Shown: positions 10,564-33,177, numbered from the stretch's first letter. The stretch is DNA of 64,000 bases from Candidatus Microsaccharimonas sp. (GCA_049276535.1 JBASWP010000001.1:168241-232240); one strand, 5' to 3'. The notes: generated from the sequence alone by a model not told the origin. Translations and numbers: made by a program.

Positions 10564-10599
10564 AATTGCGTGTCTCCTAATAAGTTAATTATACCATAA

Positions 10600-13391: not shown

Positions 13392-13492
13392 TTAAAATCA
13401 TTATACAAAAGCATTAGGCTTAAGGCTAATAATACACACAAAATAGCGACCGATAGTGTCGAGTTAGTAAAAGCTATGTCATAATATTCCAA

Positions 13493-14098
13493 ATGTCCGA
13501 ATTTACCGATGCCGACTTTTCCGATCCGATCCGCCGAATGAGTGATGGCGCCTTAGCACGCCTACATGCCATTAATAACGGCGAGATTGAATCGATGCGC
13601 GTTGGAGACGAACATCTTTCTTTGATCACAGATCGCCACGAATCAGATATCTTTCAAGAAGTCTCGTATGAGGTCCTCACGCGAGCATTTATCTTTGATC
13701 GTGTCGGTGACCCAATTATGCAACAAGATAGACTTCCGCCTCACCTACAAGGAACGTTAAGTGGCATGCTGTTAACCCTGGCCGATTCACAGGATTCAAA
13801 ACAAAGTCGCAATATTACGCCGCTAGAGTTTGATGCGGAATACGCGGCAAAACTGGTTGCCGACAAGTGGCTTTTATCGACCACTGAACGCATGAATCAT
13901 CAGGATTTTAAGTTTTTTACCCTTGATTTAGGCCACGTTGCCTTCACTAGTATCTTCTTTGCCTACGATACTGATACGCAAGCATGGCGATTAGGATATG
14001 AGATGAAACGACCGTTTATTACCTATAGGGCTCATCCAGATTTTAAAGGCGAAATCGACATTGTCGATGACGAAGAAAGTGATCTCGTCGTTCTATAG
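13493..14098 (+). CDS. Hypothetical protein
   Basis: 201-aa ORF in the background composition. No recognisable motif. Confidence 0.4.
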   Translation: MSEFTDADFSDPIRRMSDGALARLHAINNGEIESMRVGDEHLSLITDRHESDIFQEVSYEVLTRAFIFDRVGDPIMQQDRLPPHLQGTLSGMLLTLADSQDSKQSRNITPLEFDAEYAAKLVADKWLLSTTERMNHQDFKFFTLDLGHVAFTSIFFAYDTDTQAWRLGYEMKRPFITYRAHPDFKGEIDIVDDEESDLVVL

Positions 14099-14127
14099 CT
14101 ATTTCCTACTCTTTCAGAGGTCAGCTA

Positions 14128-14156
14128 TTGAATTATCGTAGTTTTTATGCTATAAT
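14128..14156 (+). promoter_or_regulatory. Sigma70-like promoter (TTGAAT-17-TATAAT, extended TGcTATAAT) driving GC-rich island A
   Basis: TTGAAT at 14128-14133, a 17-bp spacer, TATAAT at 14151-14156 preceded by TGC. It sits in an AT-rich segment immediately 5' of the GC-rich genes. Confidence 0.55.
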
Positions 14157-14269
14157 AGGCTAGCTTGTGAGCCTGCTACCGAATCGGGAGCGAGAGCTCC
14201 AGGTTCGTTAACATGCTCACACACTACGAAAGACTTGTCCCTTGTTAGATCCGACCAAAGGAGAAACAC

Positions 14270-15814: not shown

Positions 15815-15819
15815 ATCCC

Positions 15820-16500
15820 ATGTCCGACAACGACACGTCCTACACGAAGACCCCGCCCCGACTCGTCCCCTGGCTCATCGCCGGTGGTGCGTTCGTCGTC
15901 GCGTTGGTCGTCGGCCTGTCAGTGTTCTTCACCTACCAGAACGTGATCAGCACCGGTAACCAGAAGGAGGCGAACATGAGTTCGCTGTACGCTCAGGGAG
16001 CCACCACGCTGTCCACGTGCCTGGTGCAGACGTCACAGGCGGCCAACGTCGCGCAGGCGGAGTCGGAGGCCTTGCAAGAGGTCTTCGCGTCCGCCATCGC
16101 GGCGCGCTACGACACCCCCGCCGGCCAGATCGACGAGGGCGCGCTGTTCTCGGCGATCGTCGAGGCCTACCCCGATGTGACCGGCCTGGAAGAGACTTTC
16201 CAGCAGGTCATCTCGGTCATCGTCGGCTGCCGCACGGACTACGCCAACGCACAGGCGCTCGTCCAGGTGGCCGTGAAGGACTTCAACAGCTGGCGAACTG
16301 GCAGCTGGGTGGTCCGCACCTTCGGTGGCTCGGAGTTCCCGAACGACAACCTCTACATCGCCATCGGCGACACCGAGGTATACGGTCAGGAGGCCTACGA
16401 GATCATGCGCAAGCCGATCGTCGACAACTCGACGATCACCGCCTACGAGGAAGGAGTCATCGAGATCGAGGACCCCTTCCCGTCGGGCGACGACGAGTAG
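15820..16500 (+). CDS. GC-rich island A gene 2: N-terminally membrane-anchored protein, function unknown
   Basis: Same frame as the track ORF 15580..16500. The likely start is ATG 15820, just after the upstream stop at 15812-15814, giving 'MSDNDTSYTKTPPRLVPWLIAGGAFVVALVV...'. It has one TM helix followed by a soluble domain. Confidence 0.5.
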   Translation: MSDNDTSYTKTPPRLVPWLIAGGAFVVALVVGLSVFFTYQNVISTGNQKEANMSSLYAQGATTLSTCLVQTSQAANVAQAESEALQEVFASAIAARYDTPAGQIDEGALFSAIVEAYPDVTGLEETFQQVISVIVGCRTDYANAQALVQVAVKDFNSWRTGSWVVRTFGGSEFPNDNLYIAIGDTEVYGQEAYEIMRKPIVDNSTITAYEEGVIEIEDPFPSGDDE

Positions 16501-16648
16501 GCATCCCTTCGGGGTAACAAGTAGTGACAGTCCTTCGGGAGTGTGAGCATCCGCCACGGCGTCCGATCACTCGGATGTCCGTGGCGGTATGTGTCCAGGA
16601 ATAGAATAATCCTGCTGATGAGTCGTAAACGACGAAACACATCTTGTA

Positions 16649-16677
16649 TTGAATAATTGTATATTTTATGCTATAAT
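16649..16677 (+). promoter_or_regulatory. Second copy of the TTGAAT-17-TATAAT promoter element
   Basis: Contains TTGAAT, a 17-bp spacer and TATAAT, sharing 'ttttatgctataata' with the 14.1 kb copy. It sits in a short AT-rich gap inside the GC-rich island. Confidence 0.5.
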
Positions 16678-16710
16678 ATACTTATTCCCTACTGAAAGGA
16701 AGTACCCGCG

Positions 16711-17133
16711 ATGAACGTCGCACGAATCCTCGAAATCCTGTTCGATTCACTCGGACAGGTCGACGAGAACCAGAACCCTCTCGAGGGTTCAGAAGTTGTG
16801 GATGTGTACATGCAGCCGATCGCGCTCAACGTCGCGAAGGTGCACGAGTACGCCGCCGAGATGATCGAACTCCTCAAGGAGTGGCCCAGCGAAAGCTGGG
16901 GTCAGTCGGTCCCGCCGCTGGGTGAAGAGATCAACTATCTCATCGCCGGCGCCGTTCTCGACAACCAGCGTCACGCCTTCATGCTGTTCGCCTTCGGCAA
17001 GCTGCTGGACTGGTGGGACATCATGGACCCACACACCATGCTCGGCCTCGCAAAGGACGACCCGTTGGGTCTCCAAATGGCCGGCAGCGGCTTCATCGCC
17101 ATCTTGGGCTACCGTCCGACGGTTCCGGCCTAG
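16711..17133 (+). CDS. GC-rich island A gene 3: hypothetical cytoplasmic protein
   Basis: 140-aa ORF with GC-rich codon usage. A GGAAG ribosome-binding site precedes it and an intrinsic terminator follows. Confidence 0.45.
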   Translation: MNVARILEILFDSLGQVDENQNPLEGSEVVDVYMQPIALNVAKVHEYAAEMIELLKEWPSESWGQSVPPLGEEINYLIAGAVLDNQRHAFMLFAFGKLLDWWDIMDPHTMLGLAKDDPLGLQMAGSGFIAILGYRPTVPA

Positions 17134-17148
17134 ATGGCACACTTGCAG

Positions 17149-17175
17149 TACGGGGATCGGGCGCACACATGTGCG
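17149..17175 (+). terminator. Intrinsic terminator ending island A
   Basis: Perfect hairpin 'gggcgcacacatgtgcgccc' followed by TTTTCTCATTT. Confidence 0.6.
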
Positions 17176-17214
17176 CCCTTTTCTCATTTCAGTATATATC
17201 TATACATGACATCT

Positions 17215-17799
17215 TTAAGACGCGGTCAGTATTGAAAACACTCGCTGACCTACCATGTCATCGAACGGTTCGCCTTGTTCGATTCGGCGACGGAGTTCGG
17301 TTGAGCTGAGGTCTAAGTGCGGAATAGTCAACGCCAGTGCCCGTACCGCCAATGGGTTGATCGTGCTTCCTGCCCGTTCGACAACCAACATGGCTAAATT
17401 CCGAAGCAACCAGTCACCGTGTTGCCATTCACCCATCGTCTCGGTTGAATCGGCGCCAAATACCCAGCGAAATTCGCGATCAGGATAGGTATCCGCCAGC
17501 TCAACGACAGTATCGTAGGTTTCAACCGCGACACTTCGATCGAGTTCGGCCGTATATACCGAAGTAGGAACCCCCGTTACGTCAGTGTCTTCAATCATGC
17601 CGGCAACATACGCCAGTCGCTGTTCACGTGTCGCAGGGATCGCCTTGTCTATTCGGTTACCACTAGGCATCACCCATACTTCAGCCCCGTGTGGCCGAGC
17701 GTAATTGACAGCTGCCTGCAAGATCTCTTGATGAGCCAGGGTAGGGGGGTTAAAAGCTCCGCCATAGATGACTGTTTCGATCTGTTCTGGGTTTCTCAT
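17215..17799 (-). CDS. nadD: Nicotinate-nucleotide adenylyltransferase
   Basis: N-terminal 'YGGAFNPPTLAH' nucleotidyltransferase (H/T)xGH motif. Size (194 aa) and NAD-gene context fit. Confidence 0.75.
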   Translation of the reverse strand: MRNPEQIETVIYGGAFNPPTLAHQEILQAAVNYARPHGAEVWVMPSGNRIDKAIPATREQRLAYVAGMIEDTDVTGVPTSVYTAELDRSVAVETYDTVVELADTYPDREFRWVFGADSTETMGEWQHGDWLLRNLAMLVVERAGSTINPLAVRALALTIPHLDLSSTELRRRIEQGEPFDDMVGQRVFSILTAS

Positions 17800-17885
17800 A
17801 GTTTTATTCCTTACTTATTGTTGACATTACACTAACTATGCTCTACGATAAGTATATACCAGTTAGTGTAAAAAAGGAAATAAGT

Positions 17886-19796
17886 ATGGAAATTATGAAA
17901 AAAGATGACGGATACGAACCAAAACGCAACTTTCTAAGGGTCGCGACAGCGACACCAGAAGTTGCCATTGCCGATGTTACCGAGAACCTTACCCGTATCT
18001 GCGAATTGTATGATCAAGCGGTCGACGCACACACTTCCCTCGTTGTCTTCCCCGAGCTATCTTTGACTGGCTATAGTATTCAGGACCTTGTCCAACAACC
18101 CGCCCTTTTACAGAATGCTCGTCAGGCACTTGCTGGTTTCGCTGAATACACTAAGGGTCGTAATACCGCGGCCATCGTCGGTCTTCCTTTTGTAGTTGGT
18201 AATGCGATTTATAACACCGCCGCTGTTGTTTCTGAAGGTAAAATTCGCGGCATCGTTCCAAAGCAAAACCTTCCTACCTATAACGAATTTTACGAAAAAC
18301 GCTGGTACCAGACATGGGACGATCGTCCAAATACCCAGGTCCTGATCGATGATACTGCGGTCACCTTCGGTCGTGACCAGTTATTCGCTATCGGCGATCA
18401 ATTAGTTGGTATCGAAATTTGCGAAGACCTGTGGGTACCGCAACAACCAAGTATTCGCTTAGCTGAAAACGGCGCAACGATCATCGCAAATCCTTCTGCT
18501 TCACCCGAAGCTGTCGCAAAACCACGCTACCGCCGTGAACTGGTTGCCCAAACCGCCGCAAGGAACATGGTTGGGTATGTTTACGCCAGTGCAGACCAAA
18601 GCGAGTCTACCGCCGAAATCGTCATGGGTGGCCACGCCATTATTAACGAACTAGGCACCGGTCTAGCTGAACGCGCACCCTTCACAAAACCTCAACCGCT
18701 GATGATTGCCGACATCGACATGCAACATATCGCCAGTGACCGTCGAAAAACCACCAATTTTCCTAACCGAATGGACATCACTCCTACTCCTACCTTTGTC
18801 ACGCCAGCGCAAAGTGACCTACTACGAGCAATTGACGCAGAACCATTCATTCCAAAAGGTTCAGCCGAAGAAATCGCTGAACGTCTGGAACACATCCTCA
18901 ATATCCAAGCAACGGGCCTAGCAATGCGACTCAAAAGCGCCAATATTAAAAAGGTAGTCTTGGGACTCTCTGGTGGGCTGGATTCAACACTCGCCTTCCT
19001 AGTCGCTACCCGTGCCGCAGATATACTCGATGTTCCAGCAAGTGAGCTCATCCACACACTAACAATGCCAGCAAACGCCAGTTCAGCTCGCACTCAAAAT
19101 AATGCAATGAAGTTAGCAGCCGCTATGGGAATTACTAACGATGAAATTGCCATCCAAAACCTAACCGACGCTCAACTGGCCGTCATTGATCACGAAGGTG
19201 GCCAAGATGTGACGTTCGAAAACACCCAGGCACGTATTCGCCAAGCATTGGTATTTAACAAAGCGAATCAAATCAACGGACTAGCCATGGGTACCGGTGA
19301 CCTTAGTGAAATAGCGCTCGGGTGGGCCACCTACAACGGCGACCACATGTCTCACTACAACGTGAACGCATCAATTCCAAAGACACTGGTCCGCTCACTC
19401 GTCAGGCATGCTAGTACAGCCCTGCCTGAAAAGGCACAGACAATCGTGGCCGATATATTAGATACTCCCGTCTCACCAGAACTGACCGGTGATGGAAACA
19501 CCATTAGCCAGGAAACCGAAGACCTAATTGGCCCTTACGAATTGCATGATTTCTACCTCTATCACTTCCTTCGCTGGATGGAACCAAAGGAAAAGATCGG
19601 CTACCTAGCAGTCAAAGCATTCGAAGGTCGACGCACCGCCGACGAAGTTACCAAATGGTTAGACGTGTTCATCGATCGCTTTTACAAAAACCAATGGAAA
19701 AGACAAGCAATGCCTGATGGCGCCAAAGTAGGCATCAGTTTAAGCCCTAAGGGCGACTGGCGTATGCCACCAGAAGCCCGAGCAGTGTTATACTAA
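17886..19796 (+). CDS. nadE: Glutamine-dependent NAD+ synthetase (CN-hydrolase + NAD synthetase domains)
   Basis: N-terminal nitrilase-like domain ('VVFPELSLTGY') and C-terminal PP-loop 'GLSGGLDS'. The preferred start is ATG 17886, which follows an AAGGAAA ribosome-binding site; the track ORF starts at 17838. Confidence 0.85.
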   Translation: MEIMKKDDGYEPKRNFLRVATATPEVAIADVTENLTRICELYDQAVDAHTSLVVFPELSLTGYSIQDLVQQPALLQNARQALAGFAEYTKGRNTAAIVGLPFVVGNAIYNTAAVVSEGKIRGIVPKQNLPTYNEFYEKRWYQTWDDRPNTQVLIDDTAVTFGRDQLFAIGDQLVGIEICEDLWVPQQPSIRLAENGATIIANPSASPEAVAKPRYRRELVAQTAARNMVGYVYASADQSESTAEIVMGGHAIINELGTGLAERAPFTKPQPLMIADIDMQHIASDRRKTTNFPNRMDITPTPTFVTPAQSDLLRAIDAEPFIPKGSAEEIAERLEHILNIQATGLAMRLKSANIKKVVLGLSGGLDSTLAFLVATRAADILDVPASELIHTLTMPANASSARTQNNAMKLAAAMGITNDEIAIQNLTDAQLAVIDHEGGQDVTFENTQARIRQALVFNKANQINGLAMGTGDLSEIALGWATYNGDHMSHYNVNASIPKTLVRSLVRHASTALPEKAQTIVADILDTPVSPELTGDGNTISQETEDLIGPYELHDFYLYHFLRWMEPKEKIGYLAVKAFEGRRTADEVTKWLDVFIDRFYKNQWKRQAMPDGAKVGISLSPKGDWRMPPEARAVLY

Positions 19797-19800
19797 CTGT

Positions 19801-20475
19801 ATGAAATACACTACACCGTATGTAGCACCGACACTCACTGTTGACGCAGTTATCTTCCAGCTGATCAATAACGAGCTTTCTGTTCTGTTAATACAGCGCC
19901 CGAACGACCCTTTCAAAGGATCATGGGCACTACCTGGTGGCTATAACCCCCAAGGTGAAACGACCATCGTAGCATTGGAACGAATCGTCCAAGAAAAAAC
20001 TGGGGTAAATATCAAAAAGAACCTTAGCTATATCGAACAGCTGTATACATTCGATACTGTCGCCCGCGATCCTCGTGGCCATGCCGTATCGGTCACGTAT
20101 ATGGGGTGTGGGCGCGACCTTGAATCGGATATTTCGACCGGCGTCGGCTTTTTTCCTGTAACGTCCCTTCCAGAACTTGCGTATGACCACGCCGATATTA
20201 TTCACTATGCTCATAAGCGGCTGATCGCGAAGTTGACCTACACCAATGCGGTGTATGCCTTCCTCCCCCCTCGATTTACCCTCGCCGAGTTACAGGCTGC
20301 CTATGAAGGAATCTTTGGCTACGCACTCGATAAACGAAACTTCCGTAAGAAATTCTTGAGTCTAGGCCTAACCGAAGAAACCGACGAAAAACGTCGTGAT
20401 GGTGCCCACCGTCCTGCAGCGTTACATAAATTCCGCTCACAAACCCTCGAAACACTGTCTCGTAGCTTCGATTGA
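19801..20475 (+). CDS. Nudix-domain protein, probably NrtR-like NAD-regulon regulator / ADP-ribose pyrophosphatase
   Basis: Nudix box 'GGYNPQGETTIVALERIVQEKTGV' plus a roughly 90-aa C-terminal domain. It is adjacent to nadD/nadE, as NrtR family members usually are. Confidence 0.55.
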   Translation: MKYTTPYVAPTLTVDAVIFQLINNELSVLLIQRPNDPFKGSWALPGGYNPQGETTIVALERIVQEKTGVNIKKNLSYIEQLYTFDTVARDPRGHAVSVTYMGCGRDLESDISTGVGFFPVTSLPELAYDHADIIHYAHKRLIAKLTYTNAVYAFLPPRFTLAELQAAYEGIFGYALDKRNFRKKFLSLGLTEETDEKRRDGAHRPAALHKFRSQTLETLSRSFD

Positions 20476-20659
20476 TCTTAATTCTTAATTTGTGACTTTC
20501 GTCCTTGGTTATATTCCTATAGCCTGGACTCATCAGCATATGTCTACATATGGAGTCGTGCAGACCTGCGAGGAGGCGAAGTGAATCGCGCTCTCTCGCA
20601 GGTCTGTTAGTGTACGGGCGTTGCGGCTCGCACGGGTGGAATTACACGACTCTTGCCGG

Positions 20660-21436
20660 CTACGGAGCGAAGAAGCCGTTCATCGCCGTCTGGCTGAACG
20701 ACGCCGACTGGCTGGCCCGCACCGCGGACTGGCTGACGACGGCGAACGCCTTGCGGATCTCGGACGGCGAGTTGCCCGGCGTCAGGACCCACTCATCGAG
20801 CAGGCCCATCTTCGAGAACACGTCGCGGAAGTCCGTGTGGCCATCCTCGATGCCGACGCCGGCGATGATGTGCTGCTCGGTCGCCAGCAGTCCCTTCACG
20901 ATCACGGCGACGTCACGAGCCTTCTTGACGGAACCGTAGTCCGCGCCGTCGGTCGTGACGAAGGTGATGGCTCGCGCCGTCACCCCGCCCTGTTCGAACT
21001 CTGCGATCTTTGCAGCCACGGCCGTGAGGACGAGGATCATCTGGTCGTAGAGCGGGGTGCTGCCGCCGGGGTTGTAGTTCGTCCCGTCCAGGCGGATGGC
21101 CTGGTCGAGCAGAACGTACGGCTGCAGCACTCCTCGGTTGAGCGTCCAGACACCGCAGAGAACCGCGGCCTGCTGCTTGGACGCTTTCAGCGAGTCGACC
21201 ACGAGGTTGTGACCATCGCGGGCGTGCTGGGCGTTGTCGTACATCGAGGTGCTGTCGTCGAGCACCTCGGTGACGATGATGACCTCCGAGGCGTCGATGT
21301 CATCGACGACGACCGTGCCGAGGCCGGCGTTGATAGCCGGCCCCAGCGTGTCGACGACCGTAGTCATCGCCGCGGTCGCGTCGTCATCGACCCCTGCTCC
21401 GGAGATCAGGCTGGACAGAGAGGTTGTGCTTGTCAT
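20660..21436 (-). CDS. vWA-domain protein with MIDAS motif (TerY-like), island B gene 4
   Basis: 'LDDSTSM' (DxSxS MIDAS) and 'VTTDGADYG'. GC-rich codon usage. Last gene of the minus-strand operon. Confidence 0.65.
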   Translation of the reverse strand: MTSTTSLSSLISGAGVDDDATAAMTTVVDTLGPAINAGLGTVVVDDIDASEVIIVTEVLDDSTSMYDNAQHARDGHNLVVDSLKASKQQAAVLCGVWTLNRGVLQPYVLLDQAIRLDGTNYNPGGSTPLYDQMILVLTAVAAKIAEFEQGGVTARAITFVTTDGADYGSVKKARDVAVIVKGLLATEQHIIAGVGIEDGHTDFRDVFSKMGLLDEWVLTPGNSPSEIRKAFAVVSQSAVRASQSASFSQTAMNGFFAP

Positions 21437-21457
21437 CTTGTTCGTTTCCTTTCAGGA

Positions 21458-22510
21458 TCAGACGAGATTGATGTCCGGCCAGGACTCGATCGGGTCGGTC
21501 GAGTTGACGACGTGCATGCCGGCGCTGCGGAACTCGTCGAACGCCTTGTCGGCGTCCGGCCCGTAGTCGACGATCACGTCACCGGTGGTGGGGTCCTTCA
21601 CGACGATCGACGTCGTGCAGTCCTCCATGATGTAGATCTTCTTCGCCAGGGCGATGTCGATCGCGGCGATCTCCCGCAGGAGATCCGAGATGGTCCAGGC
21701 CACGCAGTGGCTCTTCGCCTGTCCCGTGATGATCAGCACGTCGTTCTCGATCAGTTCCTTCAGGAACTCGGTGTTGCGAGGGACGGGCTGTCCGTCGAAC
21801 AGCGAGTTAACCTCGGGTCCCAGGATCGAGTAGTTCTCGACGAAGGGGTGAGTCCCCTTGATCTGGATGCCCGGCTGGACTCCACGGACCAGGCCGTGGT
21901 AGTTGACCGCCTCGGCGATGCCGCTGACGAGGGCGTGGCCCTTGTCACCGATCATGCCGTGGTACGGCCACATCGTCAGAGCGTAGCGCCCCGCCGACTC
22001 CAGCTTCGCGGTGTAGTCCATCAGGTGCTGCCGCAGGAACATCACCGATACCTTCAGCGCCGCCGCTGTGAAGGGATCCGGAACCCAGACCCCACCAGCG
22101 ATGTCTGCGTGGGTGATGGTGGTGAACGGCGCCGGGTGGTTGCCGTTCGCATCGATGACGAACGAGGTGTGGAACACCGCGAACGCTCGGTGCGTGTCCA
22201 GCGTGCAGTCGATGCTGGACAGCGTCGCCAGGTTGCGGTAGATGAACTCCGCGGTCCGGATGCTGTCCTGCACCGCGCCATCTCCGCTCATGCCGGCGAC
22301 GAACAGCTCCCCGTTGGGGTCGCAGAACGTCCGCTGAGTGTCGATGAGCAGCAGGCCGACCTTACGAGCGTCGTCCTTCGCCGGCTTGATCCCGAGGGAC
22401 CGCCGGGTGTCGAGTGCCGCCGACTGCAGCGCGCTGAAATCGATCCAGCGCGTGTCATCGACGACGTTCTCCGGCTTGTAAAACGCCGGTAGTGCCAATG
22501 TGTTCTTCAT
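21458..22510 (-). CDS. Isochorismatase/nicotinamidase-family cysteine hydrolase (long form), island B gene 3
   Basis: 'LLLIDTQRTFCDP' (vDmQndF-like) and 'VLIITGQAKSHCVAWTISD' (catalytic Cys segment) with a roughly 130-aa insertion between them. Lies 21 nt from both neighbouring genes. Confidence 0.55.
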   Translation of the reverse strand: MKNTLALPAFYKPENVVDDTRWIDFSALQSAALDTRRSLGIKPAKDDARKVGLLLIDTQRTFCDPNGELFVAGMSGDGAVQDSIRTAEFIYRNLATLSSIDCTLDTHRAFAVFHTSFVIDANGNHPAPFTTITHADIAGGVWVPDPFTAAALKVSVMFLRQHLMDYTAKLESAGRYALTMWPYHGMIGDKGHALVSGIAEAVNYHGLVRGVQPGIQIKGTHPFVENYSILGPEVNSLFDGQPVPRNTEFLKELIENDVLIITGQAKSHCVAWTISDLLREIAAIDIALAKKIYIMEDCTTSIVVKDPTTGDVIVDYGPDADKAFDEFRSAGMHVVNSTDPIESWPDINLV

Positions 22511-22531
22511 TGCCTTGCCTTTCCGTTTTTT

Positions 22532-24403
22532 CTAGTGGATTTTCAGAAGGACGATCTCGTTACCCAAGACCGCGTAGATCCCCTCTCGTCCTTGAACGAG
22601 CTGGGCGTGGGAGTTCACGAACGGCTCGGTGTCGGGGAAAACTTTCTCCACGAACACCGCACCGCCATTCACCCCAAGTCGAACGATGCCGTCGTCGGTG
22701 GCCACGCAGAGCAGCTTACCGATTGCCAGGTGACCCCGAATACCTCCGCCCAGCCATGAATCCTCACCATCCATGGCACTAGCTTCAGCGAGGAGCTTCC
22801 CTTGCTTGTCGACAACGTAACACTTGTGATACAGCGATCCTTGATCCTGCACCGTCGCGAAGAACCAGATCTGGTCGTTCCCGAAAACGGCAGTGGCGTC
22901 GACCAGCTGGCCGGGAATCGAGGGAATCTCGACCCGGTCATTGAACGACTGACCATTGGCGTTAAAGATGAACGAACGGACGATCTTGCCCGCTTGGAAG
23001 AACCCGAAACCGAGTGATTCCCCTACCCAGACCAGTGTCTGATCTGACAGGATGTCACCGATGCGTTCCGGTCCAAACTTGCCGTCCTTGACCAGCTCGT
23101 TGCCGCTCAGCCAGTAGCTGTGCTGCTGGTTCGCGTCGAACACTGGAAGGATCTGACGATAGAGCCCTGTCGTATAGCTCTGGTTCGCACCGTCGCCATC
23201 GATCTCAAAGACCCTGCCTTCTTTTCCAATCAGCGTCGAGTCGCCCTTGATCCTGAACCGAAGTTCGTGATCCAGTTCGCCCGTGAGGACCTTGCGGCCC
23301 CCCTCGCGGTAGTACGCGCCGTTCTCGTGGTACAGATATCGCAGCTCGTGGTCCTGATTCACGACGTACAGCAGGCGCCCGGTTGTACGGAACACTCGCT
23401 CGGACGTGACGGTACCGCGAACGGTGACGACCGTCTTCACATACCCCGACGTGGCCGCGCAGGTCGGACAGATGTTACGCGCATGGGTTTCCCCACACTG
23501 CGTGCATACCGTCCAGCGCAGATTGTCGAAATAGCGAAGCGGAAACTCACCACGCAGATCTTTCTCGTACACCTGGTGCAGGTAGTCCAGAAAGTCGTCC
23601 GGCAAGACACCGAGGGGGAGGGCCGGCTTCGGGTAGATGACACTCGGGTCAAATACCGTCACTCGTCCCAGCACCCTTTCGTCGTGCTGAAGGCGTCTGC
23701 CGGTTTTGGGCCGGTGAACACCTCCGTACGGACCAACCGCCAGTTGCGACTGCATCAGCATCGTAAGAAATGCGTACCAGTCGGACTCTTGGTTGTGTGG
23801 CCGCGCAAGCACAAGGTGATCGGGAGCACACCGAAGCGGGTCGACGAATCGACTCGTGAAGGTGTGGGTCTCGAACCCTGCGAATTGCATACTGTCGGCG
23901 TCGACCACCTTCACGCCACCGTTATTCACGATGACATTCAGGTCATTGACGTCGCCCAGCACCACAGACTGTGCGTGGATCTGCTTGAACACTCGATGGA
24001 GTTCTCGGAAGATCTTGACGACCTGATTACCGTCGATACCGCTTGCTTCGCGGTACTGACGGCTAGTCAGCTTCATCAAAACATCCCCTCCACTGATGAA
24101 AGGCATGGTGTACCCCACCACCTTGTCGTTCCCGGACTTGTCAAAAGCCAGGGCAAGGGGTGCGACGACTTCCGCAGGGAGACCCTTTGGAAAGACGCGC
24201 AGCTTCTTCTGTTGTTCGGCGATGCGAACGACTGCGCCTTGCTGTGCCGCCGAGTCACCCGTGTAGTCGGGATCCTTCGGTGTCTTGAACAGCTTCAGCA
24301 CGGTGTTGTTGTCGACCTTGAAGACGTCTGCTTCGCCACCTTTACCGATCAAGGCGCCCGGTTGCAAACGGACGACCTGACCATTCAGCATGACTGAAGG
24401 CAT
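22532..24403 (-). CDS. Atypical Ser/Thr protein kinase-like protein with CxxC...CxxC zinc ribbon and C-terminal beta-rich domain, island B gene 2
   Basis: Gly-rich loop 'GKGGEADVF', Lys 'VLKLF', catalytic-loop-like 'VLGDVNDLNVIV', 'VVDADS' in place of DFG. Then 'CTQCGETHARNICPTC' and about 300 further residues. It follows the PP2C gene with a 2-nt gap. Confidence 0.55.
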   Translation of the reverse strand: MPSVMLNGQVVRLQPGALIGKGGEADVFKVDNNTVLKLFKTPKDPDYTGDSAAQQGAVVRIAEQQKKLRVFPKGLPAEVVAPLALAFDKSGNDKVVGYTMPFISGGDVLMKLTSRQYREASGIDGNQVVKIFRELHRVFKQIHAQSVVLGDVNDLNVIVNNGGVKVVDADSMQFAGFETHTFTSRFVDPLRCAPDHLVLARPHNQESDWYAFLTMLMQSQLAVGPYGGVHRPKTGRRLQHDERVLGRVTVFDPSVIYPKPALPLGVLPDDFLDYLHQVYEKDLRGEFPLRYFDNLRWTVCTQCGETHARNICPTCAATSGYVKTVVTVRGTVTSERVFRTTGRLLYVVNQDHELRYLYHENGAYYREGGRKVLTGELDHELRFRIKGDSTLIGKEGRVFEIDGDGANQSYTTGLYRQILPVFDANQQHSYWLSGNELVKDGKFGPERIGDILSDQTLVWVGESLGFGFFQAGKIVRSFIFNANGQSFNDRVEIPSIPGQLVDATAVFGNDQIWFFATVQDQGSLYHKCYVVDKQGKLLAEASAMDGEDSWLGGGIRGHLAIGKLLCVATDDGIVRLGVNGGAVFVEKVFPDTEPFVNSHAQLVQGREGIYAVLGNEIVLLKIH

Positions 24404-24405
24404 GG

Positions 24406-25218
24406 TTACTCCGTTTCTGTGGGTTGGGGAACGCGGCGTCCGACGATCATCGTGGTGTCATCCCGCAGGTACCCGAATTCCGGGTCCTTTTGGGGGTAGT
24501 CACGACCGATCAGCTTCAGCTCGCGCTCGATGGCAATGTGGAGGGCGTAGTACTTGTCGTCTTGCCAGAACTGCTCGATCGGTCCGACGATGCCGGACAG
24601 GCCGGGCTTTTTCTTGCCCTCGCTTGCGACCAGGTAGTCTATCCCGTCCGTCGCCAACATGAACGAATTCACGTCGGTGACATCAAACGGGGCAAACACC
24701 GGGTGCAAACGCAACAGGTCGGAATCGACCGTGGCATCCTCGCCCATCAAGCAGTACCCGATATAGGGTGGCTCGTTGTTCGGGAACGGTCCAAGGTTCG
24801 TCACGACTCCGTTGATGACGATGGTGCCGTCGCCTAGCGCAAAGAACGTGATGGTGTGGCCGTCGGTGACAAAACCGAGAAGCGTAAACAGGAAATACTG
24901 CTTGATCACTTCACGATAGTTGCCGCCCATGGCACGCACCAGCACGTCCAACTGCGAGACGACTTGCTGTTGTACGCGGCTCCACTTGATCTGGTGTTTC
25001 GGACCACTGTATGCGGCGCGGATGCTCTCGGCGAGGATCTTGACGCCCAACTGGGCGCCCACCTCGCTGTGAGCATGACTTCCGCAGCCATCAGCCACGA
25101 CTCCGACGGTCAGGTCTCCAGCCGTAAGGATAGTCCAGCTATCCTGACTGTTTAACCCGGCCCAGCGATGATCGCGACCGATCCAGCTTCCGCCAGCGAA
25201 TTGAAATTCGGCTGACAT
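24406..25218 (-). CDS. PP2C-family Ser/Thr phosphatase, island B gene 1
   Basis: 'NSQDS', 'GVVADGCGSH', 'FALGDG', 'ATDGIDYL' and 'DDTTMIV' match PPM/PP2C metal-binding motifs. A GAGGTGA ribosome-binding site precedes the start, which follows a long AT-rich leader. Confidence 0.65.
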   Translation of the reverse strand: MSAEFQFAGGSWIGRDHRWAGLNSQDSWTILTAGDLTVGVVADGCGSHAHSEVGAQLGVKILAESIRAAYSGPKHQIKWSRVQQQVVSQLDVLVRAMGGNYREVIKQYFLFTLLGFVTDGHTITFFALGDGTIVINGVVTNLGPFPNNEPPYIGYCLMGEDATVDSDLLRLHPVFAPFDVTDVNSFMLATDGIDYLVASEGKKKPGLSGIVGPIEQFWQDDKYYALHIAIERELKLIGRDYPQKDPEFGYLRDDTTMIVGRRVPQPTETE

Positions 25219-25635
25219 GGTTTCACCTCTCTCTTGTAGTGTGTAATTCCTAGTTATTAAGTTTCGAGCGAGATTAACTCTCCCGCTAAGCCCTTAATGC
25301 TCCTCTTCTTCCACTCGGGAAGGCGTCAGTAGCTGATGATCGTTAGTAGGTTATTGTCAACGATACACTAACTGATAGTGTAATAATAACACTTAGTATA
25401 AAGTCATACTATAGTTAATGTAAATTCTACAATAAGTGTCGGTCTTTAACAGATTACAGTTATACGACTATTTATTTATATGCAACTAATAAGACGTTGG
25501 TAATCGGCTGTTCGACGGGTACAAAATCGTCGCCATTTTTTGTAAAGACTTCAGCAGCCGTCGCAAAGCGATTTTCAATCAGCCATTGATTCTGCTTGGG
25601 TTCTGATCCCTTACCTACCGTAAATCCGACGTCGG

Positions 25636-27033
25636 TCAAGGCTTTAACCCAATCGCTATATTCCCAGAAACAAAATCGTTCGTGCATTTCACTGGTCCAA
25701 TATTGAAATAATCTTTTTTAGCTAAGAAATCACACAGGTCGGCATGTCGGAGGACCGCATACTCTTCACCCTCAATATTTTCAAATCGATACTCAATTTG
25801 ATCACCTTCCACCGCTCGAAAATCTTTGGCGAATCGTCGAAAACGCGCCTTTGATGACAGTGACCTTAGGAATTCAGGCAGTTCGCCTGTTTCGATATCA
25901 GGATGTACGTCGTCGGGGTTCTCGCCGTCGTCTTCATTGAGAAGTGCGTAAACGATCTTGTCTTTATTATTCGGACCCACGACATCGTAATTAATATAGA
26001 CGCCGCCCGGTGCTAAAATAGCGTGCATTCGTTCAATGAAGGCGACTAATTCACTTCTTCCTAAATACGATTCCACCTCGTGGGTAAGCGCCATTGTAAT
26101 GATCGTGTCGAGGGAATTGCGAGGAAACAACGAGCTGCGCATGATATTACGTTGGTAGAAGAACATATTAGTATCGCCAAATTCACCAGCATCTTTGCGC
26201 TGCTGACAAATCTGGTATAGCGGGCGAGCTGCTTCGACTCCGTAAAAATCAGATTCGAACATTTCAGGACGCTTTGATAAAATCTTTAGTGTTTCACCAG
26301 TCGCACAACCAACATCCAGGATACGCCCCGGCTTTACGTAGTCGACGAAGTCAGCCACTTTCCGGACCGCCCCGTCTTCAAACGCCTGACGATAGGTCGT
26401 ATAATCGCGCGTTGTCGTGATATCACCATCATCACTGTCGATTAACGGATCTTGAAAGATCTCGACGATGTCATCGCCTAAACCGTACCGTTCAAATTCT
26501 TCAAAACAGACAGGGTGCATTTCATCACGAACAATTGCATTTGATCGCCACTGTGCCCCGCTTTTGATAACTTCTTCAACAACATCCCACGGACGTGGTC
26601 CTCGCTGGTGTTCAAACGTTTCATCGAACTCGGCTGAATCAATCGCAAATCCCCGTGCCACATACTGTTCGGCGACTTCCTTGGTCGAACAGACAACTAA
26701 GGTGTTTTCAGGCGTCAGATCAACTCGCCCTTTACTTTGTAGGCGTACTTCTTCAATCAGATAGTGAGCAAAATCCTTCTTCTGCGTCATATTCGTAATG
26801 CGATACACCTGCGATGGCAAGTGCTCGGCCGCACTGACAGCTTCGATAATGCCCAGCCGACGACTCCCTGTTAGTGGATTTCGTTGGGTTCCCCCATGAT
26901 TTGCACTGGTCACTGCCCACACAACCTCGGCGCGGTGCTCGATATCAGGACGCTTTAAAAGCTTCTTTAGATTATCTATCTGGAAACGTGTAACCGCTTG
27001 ATGACGCCCAGGCACCAGCAGATAGCGGTACAT
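25636..27033 (-). CDS. Two-domain protein: N-terminal uncharacterised (nucleotidyltransferase-like?) domain fused to class I SAM-dependent methyltransferase
   Basis: Motif I 'ILDVGCATGETL' of Rossmann-fold methyltransferases in the C-terminal half. N-terminal half has 'VPGRHQAVTRFQ'. Its start overlaps the stop of the downstream phosphatase gene. Confidence 0.5.
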   Translation of the reverse strand: MYRYLLVPGRHQAVTRFQIDNLKKLLKRPDIEHRAEVVWAVTSANHGGTQRNPLTGSRRLGIIEAVSAAEHLPSQVYRITNMTQKKDFAHYLIEEVRLQSKGRVDLTPENTLVVCSTKEVAEQYVARGFAIDSAEFDETFEHQRGPRPWDVVEEVIKSGAQWRSNAIVRDEMHPVCFEEFERYGLGDDIVEIFQDPLIDSDDGDITTTRDYTTYRQAFEDGAVRKVADFVDYVKPGRILDVGCATGETLKILSKRPEMFESDFYGVEAARPLYQICQQRKDAGEFGDTNMFFYQRNIMRSSLFPRNSLDTIITMALTHEVESYLGRSELVAFIERMHAILAPGGVYINYDVVGPNNKDKIVYALLNEDDGENPDDVHPDIETGELPEFLRSLSSKARFRRFAKDFRAVEGDQIEYRFENIEGEEYAVLRHADLCDFLAKKDYFNIGPVKCTNDFVSGNIAIGLKP

Positions 27034-27860: not shown

Positions 27861-27997
27861 GGTGGTGCTCCTTTTCTTACTAATGAAAGTATACAGTTAT
27901 CGAACATAAAATGCAATTAGTGTTGACTTTACAATAAGTAGGGGGTACTATGATACTAGATAGTGTATAAAGAACACTAATTAATAAAAGGATCATT

Positions 27998-29269
27998 ATG
28001 TCAGAACTGCTCACTCTCACACCAGAACGACCATTCAACCTAAGTGAAGGGCTTGATTTCTACAAGCCGACTATGGGACAGGTTGCCCTCGAGAACTACC
28101 CCGATGCCGAGGTCACCTTTACAATGAAGAACCGTTCTGAACGATTGTTGAGCGAATTTGTGAGTGTTGATGAGCTTAACGCGCGATTCGAGGCAATCCG
28201 AGACCAAGGATTTACTCCTGAAGAAATTGCCTACTATGCCGGTTTGACCGCCCAAGATGGTTCGGCGCGATTTGACGAACCCTACCTCGATTTCCTCGCT
28301 GACCTTCGCCTCCCCCCTGTCAATGTTGGTATTAACCCTGAAACCAAAGACCTCGCGATTTCAACGACTGGCCCTTGGGCAGCGGTCAGTCTGTGGGAAA
28401 CGGTGGTTATGAGTGAAGTTAACGAACAATACTACGCCAACCTGATTGAGGCACGTGGCCTTAGTATGGAAGAAGTATGGGCAGAGGGCGATCGTCGACT
28501 CGACGAAAAAATCGCTCGACTCAAAGAACGCCCTGATATTAAATTTGCCGACTTTGGTACTCGCCGTCGCTTTAGCGCTGCTTGGCATCAACACGTCGTT
28601 GAACGATTCGCGAATGAACTTCCTGATAACTTCGTTGGCACCAGCAACCCCTACTACGCTCACAAGTTTGGTCTAAAACCAATTGGTACCTACGCCCACG
28701 AAATGCCTATGGTATACGCGGCGATAGAAGACGCCAAAAGTGGTCAACCCCTACTGGGTCACCGCAAGATGATGAAAGACTGGTTTAATCGTTATGGTAA
28801 GGATCTCTCGATTGGCTTGACTGACACCTTCGGTAGTGACTTCTTCTTTGCGGACTTCTCACAACAAGACGCAGCAGAGTGGAATGGCCTCCGCCATGAT
28901 TCAGGTAATCCGATCGACTTTGGCGAAAAAACTATCGACTTTTATATCGACAATGACATCGACCCTGAAAAAAAGACGATCGTCTTTAGTGATGGACTTA
29001 ACGTCGATAAAATGATTATATTGGCTGATCAGTTCAACGGTCGTATCAACGTCCTTGACGGTGTGGGCACTGACTTTACAAACGACATGGGACTTCCCGT
29101 TAATAATTTCGTCATGAAAGCGACTCACGCTGGCGAAAAAGACACGGTGAAGATCAGTGACGACGAAGGCAAACACACCGGTCCGATTGATATCGTTAAA
29201 CGATACCAGACCGATGCTGCCCGAGTTGTCATGCTAGCCGAAGCAATGAAAGACGGAGCCTACGTATGA
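27998..29269 (+). CDS. pncB: Nicotinate phosphoribosyltransferase
   Basis: 'LDFYKPTMGQV' (DxYKxTM hallmark). Length 423 aa and conserved 'FGTRRR' / 'HEMP' regions. Confidence 0.7.
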   Translation: MSELLTLTPERPFNLSEGLDFYKPTMGQVALENYPDAEVTFTMKNRSERLLSEFVSVDELNARFEAIRDQGFTPEEIAYYAGLTAQDGSARFDEPYLDFLADLRLPPVNVGINPETKDLAISTTGPWAAVSLWETVVMSEVNEQYYANLIEARGLSMEEVWAEGDRRLDEKIARLKERPDIKFADFGTRRRFSAAWHQHVVERFANELPDNFVGTSNPYYAHKFGLKPIGTYAHEMPMVYAAIEDAKSGQPLLGHRKMMKDWFNRYGKDLSIGLTDTFGSDFFFADFSQQDAAEWNGLRHDSGNPIDFGEKTIDFYIDNDIDPEKKTIVFSDGLNVDKMIILADQFNGRINVLDGVGTDFTNDMGLPVNNFVMKATHAGEKDTVKISDDEGKHTGPIDIVKRYQTDAARVVMLAEAMKDGAYV

Positions 29270-30933
29270 ACACGCAACTATTTGAAGCAACCCGCCGCGT
29301 TATAACCAGCGGTGAAGTCTACCGCGGTTATCCTACGACGCGCCTGACGCTCGACAAGGATAGCTTTTCCAGCGATACCCTACCAGAACTACCAAACGGG
29401 CCGTGGACAATGAATAACACTCCCCTCCCTACTGTCGAGGAATCAAAAAAATTTCTGGATGCAGGCTACAAGATTGATTCAGATGGCCGACCGCTTCATC
29501 CTTGGATTAATAGCATGATCACCGATCCTGAAGTAGGAATGGTCACCGGCAAGGGTACATACTATTTCTGGGGCCCAAATTATACGGCTGATCCTATCGT
29601 TATTACCAGCGAAGCCGTCCCCCGCGTGCTACTTATCCAACGAAGCGATACACCTCTAGGTCCTGACGGCAAACCAGTTGAACCCGTCTGGGCAATCCCT
29701 GGAGGATTTGTCGACGACGGCGAAGACCCCGAAGACAGTGCTCGTCGCGAACTGGGTGAAGAAACCGGACGCAACATAACCGAACCAGCAACGCTTCTTT
29801 ATCGAGGCGTAGTGGCCGACCTACGAACTACCGCGAACTCTTGGGCTGAAACATCTGCGTATACGTTTGTTGTTGATAAACCCTTCCCTGTCGTTGCTGG
29901 TGATGACGCCGACGACGCCTGCTGGTTTACCGAAGAAGAGTTAGCAGGAATAAAAATGCATGGATCACATGAGGTACTTGTTCGTATGGCATTTCATCCC
30001 GAGGGCGATACCACTATTCGTGATATCCTCGCCCTTCCGAAAGAATCTTTAGAAACCACCGTTATTGATGCGGGGCACATGGCCTATGATCATCGTTATG
30101 TTTCCGACGGTTCGACCCGTCTATTTGTCAAAGCACATGATGCATCTCGATTCACCGATCCAGAACGCGAAAAGCACTCTCGTCGCTATCTAAGAAAAGA
30201 ATTCTTCCTGTTCGGTCATGCCGCAAAGCAAGGGTTTACTGCCATCCCAAAACGTGTCGACTTGATTGATGACTCTATCCTAGCAATGGATGCATTTCAT
30301 CCTGATGATGGTTACTTATGGGATGCTCCTTACGACGAGCGCTTTAAACAATATTGCGAAGACATTATTGCTAAACTTGACCACCTGCAATCAATCGAAG
30401 CACCCGTTAATCCTGAATATCATGAAGATATAAAAGATACCTATACCACCTTCTGGGAAGAAGGCTGGGATGCCATTGATAATGCTTCGATGACGGCTAT
30501 TACTGATAAAATCCACCTATTATCAGCGAACTGGACAAATGACCAGAAATCCCTCGCCAGCGACCTTGCGAATTTCTTGCCACAGCTTCGAGGCACCGCG
30601 TCTCAACTTGATCGAGATGTTCCGTTATACATGGCACATAACGACGCACGTCAATCAAACATTGCTTGGCATCCCGACCAAGGAGTTAAATTGGTTGACT
30701 GGAGCTGGGGTGACGTTGCGCCAAAAGACGCTGATATCACTATGTTCCTAATTGACCTGGCAAAGTCTGGCCATGACGTATCGAAATATGCCGATCGCAT
30801 TAATCGCGATCAAGCCCTCGTCTACCTCGGTTTCTTGGTAGCACATAGCATCTGGGAAACCCGTGACGGTAGCCAAACAGTTCGTGAACACCAAGTCGCG
30901 GCCGCGGCGGCAGCGTTTTCGTTGATTCGATAA
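29266..30933 (+). CDS. Fusion protein: Nudix hydrolase + aminoglycoside-phosphotransferase-like (APH/ChoK-fold) kinase domain
   Basis: Nudix box 'GGFVDDGEDPEDSARRELGEETG' in the N-terminal half. C-terminal half has 'HNDARQSNIAWH...VDWSWGD' (Brenner HxDxxxxN ... D motif). Overlaps pncB by 4 nt. Confidence 0.55.
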   Translation: MNTQLFEATRRVITSGEVYRGYPTTRLTLDKDSFSSDTLPELPNGPWTMNNTPLPTVEESKKFLDAGYKIDSDGRPLHPWINSMITDPEVGMVTGKGTYYFWGPNYTADPIVITSEAVPRVLLIQRSDTPLGPDGKPVEPVWAIPGGFVDDGEDPEDSARRELGEETGRNITEPATLLYRGVVADLRTTANSWAETSAYTFVVDKPFPVVAGDDADDACWFTEEELAGIKMHGSHEVLVRMAFHPEGDTTIRDILALPKESLETTVIDAGHMAYDHRYVSDGSTRLFVKAHDASRFTDPEREKHSRRYLRKEFFLFGHAAKQGFTAIPKRVDLIDDSILAMDAFHPDDGYLWDAPYDERFKQYCEDIIAKLDHLQSIEAPVNPEYHEDIKDTYTTFWEEGWDAIDNASMTAITDKIHLLSANWTNDQKSLASDLANFLPQLRGTASQLDRDVPLYMAHNDARQSNIAWHPDQGVKLVDWSWGDVAPKDADITMFLIDLAKSGHDVSKYADRINRDQALVYLGFLVAHSIWETRDGSQTVREHQVAAAAAAFSLIR

Positions 30934-30986: not shown

Positions 30987-31081
30987 GCGATTCGCGTACG
31001 TGACCATCGTCTCAATACAATTGTAGAGACGGTGCCGGGGTACGTCAGCGCGAGCCAACGTACCCCAGCCTCATCATGCGA

Positions 31082-32920: not shown

Positions 32921-33177
32921 GTATTTCTCCTTGGGATAGGTGTTGCATGAATGGTGGGATGAACGTAACTAGTTACGTATGTAGTTTCATGATGAATTGT
33001 GATGATCGTTCGTCGCCCACCAGCGAATTTTGCAATTTTACATCTTTTTTCATAAAAAGTCAAGGGTTGAGAGGTGTTAATTTGATAATAACGCGATGTT
33101 AATTAACTTGCAAAAAATACATAAATATGATATATTACCTCTGTTGTTTTACTGGACACTACCGGAAGGCGTAAGAC

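Follow-up and report, generated by a model that had tools for sequence, protein, structure and literature searches.

This analysis concerns a compact four-gene cassette in Candidatus Microsaccharimonas sp., located within a 64,000-nt stretch of genomic DNA (GCA_049276535.1, JBASWP010000001.1:168241-232240) that is referred to here as the window and whose numbering is used for all coordinates. Four long open reading frames (ORFs) on the minus strand fill positions 20660-25218, with inter-gene gaps of exactly 2, 21 and 21 nt. In the order of transcription, they encode a 270-aa Ser/Thr phosphatase of the PP2C_2 type (24406-25218), a 623-aa atypical eukaryotic-type protein kinase that also carries a zinc ribbon and a beta-propeller (22532-24403), a 350-aa homologue of the nicotinamidase PncA, in the isochorismatase superfamily (21458-22510), and a 258-aa vWA-fold protein with a complete metal ion-dependent adhesion site (MIDAS; 20660-21436). 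The GC content of the cassette block is 0.57-0.65, compared with ~0.47 in the window, and the GC content at third codon positions (GC3) is 0.71-0.90 in the four genes, compared with 0.44-0.52 in the NAD genes on both sides. The ORFs, the gaps, and both measures of composition confirm the initial annotation of this DNA, which had described four tightly spaced minus-strand genes in a GC-rich segment. In RefSeq, the kinase and the vWA protein are each labelled "hypothetical protein", and the enzyme carries the name "isochorismatase".

The phosphatase matches Pfam PP2C_2 with 70 bits (E 2.6e-19). Its acidic metal-binding motifs, D26, D43-G44, G129-D130, D191-G192 and D253-D254, are invariant among 76 orthologues, and it is predicted to be catalytically active for this reason. 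The kinase scores 26.9 bits against Pfam Pkinase (E 3.8e-6), which does not reach the gathering score of 31.7, and its fold was assigned from an AlphaFold model with a pLDDT of 91.4. In Foldseek searches, residues 1-295 matched eukaryotic-type protein kinases (IRAK4, FGFR2, Aurora and PknG), residues 325-623 matched beta-propellers (tetrathionate hydrolase and virginiamycin B lyase), and the top match of the model was the kinase-WD40 half of LRRK2. The protein can accordingly be divided into a kinase domain (residues 1-295), a zinc ribbon (~298-318) and a beta-propeller (~325-623). The kinase has a Gly-rich loop, a catalytic Lys, a catalytic-loop Asp/Asn pair and a Mg-binding Asp, as expected of Hanks-type kinases; the catalytic Asp and Asn and the Mg-binding Asp are retained as D151/N156 and D168/D170. 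The variant motifs that contain such residues (GKGGEA, K37, GD(F/V)NDLN and DADS) are invariant in 45 sequences, as are the zinc-ribbon cysteines C300-x2-C303...C312-x2-C315, and the kinase is predicted to be active. Across phyla, kinase orthologues share 40-50% identity at a uniform length of ~620 aa. At E<=1e-30 the family comprises 867 clusters (50% identity), and nearly all of the 150 best are ~600-680 aa long.

The third protein escapes most family models. It has no match to Pfam Isochorismatase at E<0.1, it scores 23 bits against the NCBIfam PncA model PRK11609 (cut-off 174), and a search of PDB sequences with its family profile gave no match. Its predicted structure has a pLDDT of 90.2 and a pTM of 0.90, and the nine best PDB fold matches found by Foldseek are all nicotinamidases/pyrazinamidases, with other isochorismatase-family enzymes ranking after them. 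Alignment of the family profile with the characterized E. coli PncA by hhalign gave a probability of 97% (E 9e-11, 193 columns). The catalytic residues D57, K218 and C269 and the metal ligands D105, H107 and H184 are invariant in the family and align with those of E. coli PncA, where the metal site corresponds to the QDWH and WPDH motifs. Because of the fold matches, the PncA profile alignment and the six invariant residues, the 350-aa protein is assigned, from sequence and predicted structure, as a long-form nicotinamidase homologue, which says more than "isochorismatase-like", and we infer that it has nicotinamidase activity. It has the fold, the Asp-Lys-Cys triad and the Asp/His/His metal site in common with PncA/Pnc1 nicotinamidases such as E. 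coli b1768 and the Acinetobacter baumannii enzyme (PDB 2wta). It differs from them in ~140 extra residues, which extend the N-terminus by ~50 aa and form an insertion behind the metal motif, in being <20% identical to solved structures, and in the almost invariable linkage of its gene to the signalling triad of phosphatase, kinase and vWA protein.

The vWA protein itself has no Pfam match, and only one of 21 family members reaches VWA (E 0.009); searches of PDB sequences with the family profiles gave nothing useful. The MIDAS residues D60-x-S62-x-S64, T127 and D163 are invariant in the family, and hhalign aligned the family profile with a Natrinema protein that itself passes Pfam VWA (98% probability, E 2e-13). 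The N-terminal 50 aa are conserved, as is a Ser/Gln-rich C-terminal tail. The identities of the hydrolase and the vWA protein thus come from structure prediction and transitive profile comparison, Pfam having failed. The initial annotation had described the products as a PP2C phosphatase, a Hanks-type kinase with degenerate motifs, a CxxC..CxxC ribbon and a long beta-rich C-terminal domain, a long isochorismatase-family cysteine hydrolase, and a vWA protein with a complete MIDAS. All of these descriptions hold: the phosphatase by its Pfam score and invariant Asp motifs, the kinase by its modelled fold and the invariance of its variant motifs (at a sub-threshold Pfam score), the ribbon by its four invariant Cys, the beta-rich domain as a propeller, the hydrolase by its fold and PncA alignment, and the vWA protein by its invariant residues and transitive profile match. 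It had also proposed Pfam searches as a check on all four folds; these succeed for PP2C, fall below the gathering score for Pkinase, and give no match for the hydrolase and the vWA protein, whose folds are backed by the model and the profiles instead.

NrtR is the main NAD regulator in many bacteria. A gene with NUDIX and NrtR winged-helix domains (nrtR, 19801-20475, plus strand; NrtR_WHD 4.6e-22, NUDIX 4e-14) is convergent with the cassette and encodes a predicted repressor. It is preceded by nadD (17215-17799, minus strand) and the divergent nadE (17838-19796, plus strand), and pncB/NAPRT lies on the other side of the cassette (27998-29269). NrtR sites are 21-bp palindromes with a GT-N7-AC core (Rodionov 2008, PMC2330246), and ADP-ribose releases NrtR from DNA in vitro, as shown only for the Synechocystis and Shewanella proteins (PMC2330246). 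A palindrome in the window, TAGTGT-N7-ACACTA, agrees with the published core and palindrome. With up to two mismatches allowed, it occurs seven times in the window, against 1.6 expected, and 0/100 shuffles reach seven. All seven matches are at NAD genes or at the cassette: in the nadD-nadE divergent region (17816-17834), at the start of nrtR (19795), in the divergent region between a histidine phosphatase gene and pncB (27918-27936 and 27961-27979), and at three positions upstream of the PP2C gene.

These three palindromes surround a promoter-like site on the minus strand (25395-25424) that consists of a -35 hexamer, TTTACA (25424-25419), an 18-nt spacer and a -10 hexamer, TATACT (25400-25395), and matches the consensus at 10/12 positions. 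Palindrome 3, TAATGTAAATTCTACAATA (25416-25434, two mismatches), overlaps the -35 hexamer; palindrome 2, TAGTGTAATAATAACACTT (25376-25394), adjoins the -10 hexamer and extends over the expected start of transcription; palindrome 1, TATTGTCAACGATACACTA, lies at 25352-25370. Operators over the -35 hexamer and directly after the -10 hexamer are a classic repressor arrangement. An AT-rich 5' leader (25219-25394, minus strand) leads from the promoter to the PP2C start codon, so that the AT-rich promoter/leader proposed in the initial annotation is seen to include a promoter-like site. A riboswitch was considered for the leader and set aside, as no Rfam family matched it.

The association with NrtR extends far beyond this genome. 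A scan of one genome per species returned 496 pattern-matching stretches, 443 of which encode a confirmed kinase relative; gene context was analyzed for the 80 best loci, and operators and nrtR were counted in 73. The 80 loci come from Saccharibacteria, many other Patescibacteria, many Cyanobacteria, Gammaproteobacteria (metagenome-assembled genomes, MAGs), Myxococcota, Acidobacteriota, Planctomycetota, Gemmatimonadota, Desulfobacterota, and one MAG of Aenigmatarchaeota. Gene order could be judged in loci of sufficient length, and nearly all of these keep PP2C, kinase, hydrolase and vWA in that order on one strand. The sole clear genomic exception is a lone kinase gene of Prochloron (L078, 9995-11869) between polA and a prephenate dehydratase gene, with no PP2C, hydrolase or vWA gene within 10 kb. 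Of the 73 loci, 51 have an nrtR homologue within 10 kb of the cassette. In 38 of these it is immediately upstream of PP2C, either divergently oriented (21 loci) or in the same direction (17); in seven it is located on the vWA side of PP2C, and in six it is upstream at a greater distance.

The operator motif was found in the cassette regulatory region of 64/73 loci. Its density is 6.1/kb upstream of the cassette, compared with 0.14/kb in other non-coding DNA (a ~45-fold enrichment) and 0.019/kb in coding DNA, and another NAD gene is no more than 400 nt away from 15 of the 29 stray non-coding matches. In many cyanobacterial loci, the PP2C start is preceded by two sites in tandem, at distances of ~50 and 25 nt. 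Because the operator is enriched upstream of the cassette both in the window and in these 64 loci, the cassette is taken to be a predicted NrtR regulon member across phyla. Like described NrtR regulon operons such as nrtR-pncA-pncB (PMC2330246), it has an adjacent nrtR, a promoter overlapped by a GT-N7-AC palindrome, and an enzyme of the nicotinamidase type encoded near pncB, nadD and nadE. Unlike them, it includes kinase, PP2C and vWA genes, and its nicotinamidase is a 350-aa long form that Pfam misses. Genes for PncB, NadD, NadE, a histidine phosphatase and a methyltransferase protein recur near cassettes, with pncB, nadD and nadE the commonest neighbours, in many cases no more than 10 kb away.

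The initial annotation regarded the cassette as an imported, self-contained unit that merely lies beside NAD genes. Several observations contradict this view: the NAD link is kept across phyla, operators are present at the promoter, and the window copy falls in a Saccharibacteria clade with conserved synteny. The best homologues of all cassette proteins searched are from Candidatus Saccharibacteria, and in a neighbour-joining tree of the kinase, the window and 15 other sequences form a clade of Saccharibacteria, except for two MAGs labelled otherwise. Several clade members (L085-L087, L008 and L009) have the NAD-cluster synteny in common. Elsewhere in the tree, Cyanobacteria are nearly monophyletic, and other Patescibacteria, gammaproteobacterial MAGs and viral sequences interleave. 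The tree indicates that horizontal transfer occurred in the history of the family, and synteny and clade membership indicate that the window copy is an old resident. Most Patescibacteria loci have a cassette GC excess over the flanks of +0.06 to +0.14, even at ~50% identity, and the excess is ~0 in cyanobacteria. Recent import was considered as the cause of the GC-rich composition and rejected, because lineages with saturated synonymous sites have the same compositional signal; the excess is common to divergent Patescibacteria copies, and the window copy sits in the syntenic clade. The locus is thus conserved in relatives, as one of the outcomes foreseen in the initial annotation would have it, but its composition is not the ordinary one that was foreseen alongside.

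Taken together, these data describe a previously unannotated operon in which a putative TerY-P-like switch with a long nicotinamidase is recruited into the NrtR/NAD regulon. With a probability of roughly 55%, the cassette is an ADP-ribose-responsive operon of the NrtR regulon that serves as an inducible, phosphorylation-gated module for nicotinamide salvage. In the resting state, NrtR bound to the three operators at the cassette promoter would keep the operon off. Cleavage of NAD+ would yield ADP-ribose and nicotinamide, and ADP-ribose would free NrtR, leading to transcription of the operon together with pncB, nadD and nadE; binding of NrtR to these operators and its response to ADP-ribose are inferred from the literature (PMC2330246). 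The 350-aa enzyme would deamidate nicotinamide to nicotinate and feed the Preiss-Handler route (PncB, NadD and NadE) encoded next door. The kinase, the PP2C and the MIDAS vWA protein may form a TerY-P-like phospho-switch that gates the enzyme or a partner, or may couple the enzyme to a signal that the propeller detects. In this scheme, the propeller would act as the sensor, and the target could be the Ser/Gln-rich vWA tail or the extra 140 residues of the enzyme. The literature searched contains no account of this operon and mentions neither a nicotinamidase with a vWA protein nor a set of kinase, PP2C and vWA genes in an NrtR regulon; an earlier mention elsewhere may exist.

A number of observations weigh against this proposal. 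The hydrolase fails to match Pfam Isochorismatase and falls far below the NCBIfam PncA cut-off (23 vs 174 bits). Seven loci, including that of the close relative L087, encode a short canonical isochorismatase/PncA beside pncB as well as the long enzyme. It is mainly because of this short isochorismatase next to pncB that the long enzyme can be doubted to be simply "the" PncA, and it may be no plain nicotinamidase. The operator motif is missing in nine of the 73 loci, 22 of the 73 have no nrtR inside 10 kb, and most viral copies of the cassette are without the operator and also without nrtR. The promoter in the window is a consensus match only. The roles of the kinase, the PP2C and the vWA protein, and the target and direction of the phospho-switch, are speculative. 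Finally, the persistent GC3 excess of the cassette in Patescibacteria is left unexplained.

In an alternative model, the hydrolase acts on nicotinamide mononucleotide, nicotinamide riboside, or a protein- or nucleic-acid-linked amide as part of a response to ADP-ribosylation, with the triad recognizing modified proteins and working with ADP-ribosylglycohydrolases. In 10 cyanobacterial loci (L003, L049, L050, L064, L074, L076, L077, L080, L082 and L083; ~7600-10000), one to three tandem ADP-ribosylglycohydrolase genes (Pfam E ~1e-35) lie inside the operon, between PP2C and kinase, and such genes are nearby in several Saccharibacteria. A particularly rich example is L087, a Microsaccharimonas relative with a 68%-identical kinase, where a 16-kb NAD supercluster (2961-19448) surrounds the cassette and includes genes for a Nudix protein, PncB, a short isochorismatase, a histidine phosphatase, a methyltransferase protein, an ADP-ribosylglycohydrolase, an HD protein, a NadR-like AAA_28 kinase, PnuC and NrtR. 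The short canonical PncA of the seven loci would make a second plain nicotinamidase redundant, and the long enzyme has ~140 residues in excess of PncA. Predicted ADP-ribosylglycohydrolase-centred systems with Nudix transcription factors and vWA chaperones (Iyer et al. 2022, PMC9503650) provide a parallel: like the cassette, they have an NrtR-like Nudix regulator and a vWA protein, the cassette sometimes has an ADP-ribosylglycohydrolase, and ADP-ribose is the presumed inducer in both. The cores are different, however, with an ADP-ribosylglycohydrolase, rhodanese-type phosphatases and nucleases under Nudix or WYL regulators in the published systems (PMC9503650), and PP2C, kinase, nicotinamidase and vWA protein in the cassette, where the ADP-ribosylglycohydrolase is optional. 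Moreover, the nicotinamidase-specific metal site and triad are fully conserved, the ADP-ribosylglycohydrolase is missing from the window and from most non-cyanobacterial cassettes, and the commonest neighbours are pncB, nadD and nadE. An ADP-ribosylation response is considered unlikely. Homologues of the short PncA and of PnuC are, like the ADP-ribosylglycohydrolase, not found in the window.

Other genes also interrupt the operon. One of the cyanobacterial loci (L077) has a DUF4917/SIR2-like gene between kinase and hydrolase, and Uma2-family genes interrupt some cyanobacterial operons. Six loci (L016, L037, L039, L041, L052 and L060; ~11900-12670) encode a protein of ~250 aa between kinase and hydrolase, which is fused to the N-terminus of the hydrolase in the viral contig L089 (9891-11669) and has no Pfam or PDB match.

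A third model was suggested by the initial annotation, which likened the cassette to the TerY-P triad and proposed a role in anti-phage or abortive-infection signalling: the kinase would sense infection, the PP2C would reset the system, the vWA protein would transduce the signal, and the hydrolase would be the effector. The TerY-P triad, defined by Anantharaman, Iyer & Aravind (2012) and taken here as summarized in PMC11090510, combines a TerY-like vWA protein, a PP2C, and a Ser/Thr kinase with a C-terminal zinc ribbon, and the same summary reports that TerY-P-like modules give phage defence. Together with the triad, the TerY-P-like defence system of Gao et al. 2020 is among the closest known systems. 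The parallels are evident, with three co-operonic genes alike in both (a MIDAS vWA protein, a PP2C of PP2C_2-like type, and a kinase with a C-terminal zinc ribbon) and a presumed phosphorylation switch in each. Three differences are equally clear: the cassette kinase adds a ~300-aa beta-propeller after the zinc ribbon, a nicotinamidase gene always lies between kinase and vWA, and the context is NrtR and NAD genes rather than Ter, restriction or CoCoNuT loci. Of the features that the initial annotation had placed outside the triad, the hydrolase and the propeller are indeed extras, but the zinc ribbon belongs to the triad as PMC11090510 summarizes it.

Direct comparison with the canonical triad of plasmid R478, which comprises two short TerY-type VWA genes, a TerY-C-domain protein, a PP2C and a kinase, revealed only remote similarity. 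The vWA profile aligned with R478 TerY at 5% probability (hhalign, E 0.007), the kinase profile with the R478 kinase at 53% over 98 catalytic-core columns only, and the cassette PP2C matched the R478 PP2C with a BLASTP E of 5e-6 over 92 aa. PADLOC models many known defence systems. In PADLOC-DB 2.0, the kinase weakly matches PD-T4-6 (2.4e-6) and Stk2 (1.4e-4), the other three proteins have no match, and no TerY-P model is matched by any of the four; scans of the four proteins with PADLOC, PHROGs and NCBIfam gave no system-level match. On this evidence the triad likeness put forward in the initial annotation stands for architecture and falls for membership, and the cassette is, judged by its sequences, organized like a TerY-P triad without being a member of the TerY-P family. 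No Ter, restriction/CoCoNuT, DNA-processing or nuclease partners were noticed in ~80 genomic and 10 viral loci; these loci were searched with tblastn, using proteins of the NAD cluster and the cassette as queries, and with Pfam for selected ORFs only, with no systematic screen.

The defence model draws further on the patchy phyletic spread of the cassette and the horizontal transfer evident in the tree, on its atypical GC content in Patescibacteria, and on the SIR2-like DUF4917 gene inserted in one locus, in addition to the vWA/PP2C/zinc-ribbon kinase architecture and the weak kinase matches. Conversely, the proteins are strongly and uniformly conserved, unlike fast-evolving defence genes; the operator is common to the cassette and the surrounding NAD-biosynthesis genes; a nicotinamidase is no obvious toxic effector; and phage-classed contigs carry the cassette beside NAD-salvage genes. 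The NrtR operator, the NAD linkage across phyla and the missing PADLOC system match argue against the anti-phage or abortive-infection role, and a defence system of the TerY-P kind is regarded as quite improbable. Least credible of all is the view that an ordinary pncA is merely co-transcribed with an unrelated signalling triad in a linkage that is functionally meaningless; NrtR regulons do commonly include pncA-pncB (PMC2330246), but gene order and tight spacing are kept across phyla and viral contigs, L078 is the only full-length locus without partners, and the enzyme forms a distinct long family that is found together with the triad. In one viral contig (L091), the position of the vWA gene has shifted to upstream of PP2C.

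A central theme in phage-bacterium conflict at present is the depletion and reconstitution of NAD+, and the viral copies of the cassette are of interest for the salvage model in this respect. Ten IMG/VR contigs (L089-L098, 41-545 kb) encode full-length kinase homologues with 38-46% identity, and nine carry all four cassette genes; the tenth, L092, ends before PP2C. The vWA gene lies upstream of PP2C in L091, as mentioned. A NAPRT-like gene directly precedes PP2C in L094 and L098 (Pfam NAPRTase confirmed for L094), and a NadD-like gene follows vWA in L096. Viral status rests on the IMG/VR classification and on sampled flanks, which in L094 and L096 are phage-like, with a Phage_rep_O/DnaD-type loader, DUF5131, an RNA ligase (phrog_968, E 1e-65), a ParB-DNA methylase and a tRNA nucleotidyltransferase (phrog_2244). 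No capsid or terminase genes were seen in the 8-kb flanks of the viral contigs. Megablast of 13 kb against GenBank phages gave no match, and tblastn of the kinase against phages and plasmids found remote kinase domains only, such that the cassette is on no GenBank phage or PLSDB plasmid.

Carriage beside NAPRT or NadD on phage-classed contigs fits NAD+ restoration better than host defence. It is tentatively proposed that the cassette forms a phosphorylation-gated nicotinamidase complex which, induced in cells through NrtR when ADP-ribose signals cleavage of NAD+, would open a fourth, hitherto undescribed route of NAD+ restoration, by which large phages with their own NAPRT or NadD could outrun NAD-depleting immunity; the idea is possible but doubtful, and clearly less secure than the salvage model itself. 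If true, the fourth route would run from nicotinamide through nicotinate and nicotinate mononucleotide to NAD. The phage pathways NARP1, NARP2 and NARP3 (bioRxiv 10.1101/2024.02.11.579819; PMC13464706) are likewise phage-carried genes that rebuild NAD. They differ in their enzymes: NARP1-3 use neither a nicotinamidase/NAPRT route nor a kinase/PP2C/vWA switch, and the route proposed for the cassette would be distinct from all three.

The 3' end of the operon has an unusual structure. A stable hairpin with a 12-bp perfect outer stem and no U-tract lies in the 3' untranslated region (20561-20606, minus strand), where the initial annotation had placed one, and the surrounding 126-nt stretch (20540-20665) folds at -56.4 kcal/mol (z = -7.2). 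No intrinsic terminator was called at the hairpin. Behind vWA, the intergenic DNA shows unusual conservation that extends to L087, with compensatory changes. Directly 3' of the hairpin is a candidate type III hammerhead ribozyme (20489-20561, minus strand) with an intact CUGAUGA / GAAA / UC cleavage-site core. An Rfam scan of 241 nt found a full-length type III hammerhead (RF00008) at 20491-20560 with 25.6 bits (gathering score 48.5) and an E of 0.0015; scans of 5.4 kb and of 64 kb missed it, and the 241-nt scan alone showed it. The full catalytic core, the NUH cleavage site and the three stems are common to RF00008 and the operon copy, and compensatory changes back the stems. The difference lies in the long loop carried by stem II, because of which the operon copy scores low in Rfam, below the threshold.

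Additional evidence for the ribozyme came from related loci. Six Saccharibacteria copies keep the three stems, with 95.6% of cells paired and 9/15 pairs changed on both sides; none of 500 shuffles reaches the observed pairing support, and slid-register controls are 21-40% paired. A covariance model built from the six copies found the ribozyme behind vWA in three further Saccharibacteria loci, and found none in cyanobacterial, other Patescibacteria or viral loci. The operon hammerhead is present in 10 Saccharibacteria loci only (the window, L085, L086, L087, L001, L006, L007, L010, L013 and L014). In Saccharibacteria, the hairpin and the predicted self-cleaving hammerhead would together define the 3' end of the transcript. 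An alternative pairing of the 5' strand of stem III with 20645-20652 is possible. A second type III hammerhead, at 16588-16643 on the plus strand, scores 50.2 bits, above the Rfam gathering score; it lies downstream of GC3-rich ORFs (14270-16500) and is conserved in L085 and L086. Locus L001 has three further hammerheads in 22 kb, and none was found behind the third GC-rich block of the window. Intergenic hammerheads therefore seem to recur in several of these Saccharibacteria loci, in this case at an operon 3' end.

Upstream of the cassette, the window continues with genes for a 465-aa methyltransferase-domain protein (25472-27033, minus strand), the histidine phosphatase, PncB/NAPRT, and a Nudix domain fused to a choline-kinase/APH-like domain (29266-30933, plus strand), which directly follows pncB and is kept in relatives. 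The methyltransferase gene seems to be frameshifted near its 3' end, with a 71-aa ORF (25472-25687) going on in another frame; L085-L087 each encode the orthologue in one uninterrupted ORF, of 520-523 aa. A degenerate nucleotidyltransferase-like motif (PGRHQ) at the N-terminus of the protein is a candidate identified by eye. Two more blocks of the window, 14270-17133 and 31076-34182, have a GC3 of 0.69-0.85 against a background of ~0.45, and Pfam gave no family for three of their ORFs (14270-15814, 15580-16500 and 31076-32950).

If the cassette is what it is proposed to be, the NrtR regulon gains a conserved four-gene member, and a link between Ser/Thr phosphorylation and nicotinamide salvage is made that has no precedent in the literature searched. 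As a candidate, the cassette could mediate post-translational control of NAD recycling and perhaps also a new form of phage counter-defence. A further implication is that core metabolism can recruit an architecture of the TerY-P kind, which calls for caution in labelling such triads "defence" from domain content alone. For the organism itself, the argument is that the cassette matters because Saccharibacteria retain it in minimal genomes, which argues for a role in their host-dependent NAD economy.

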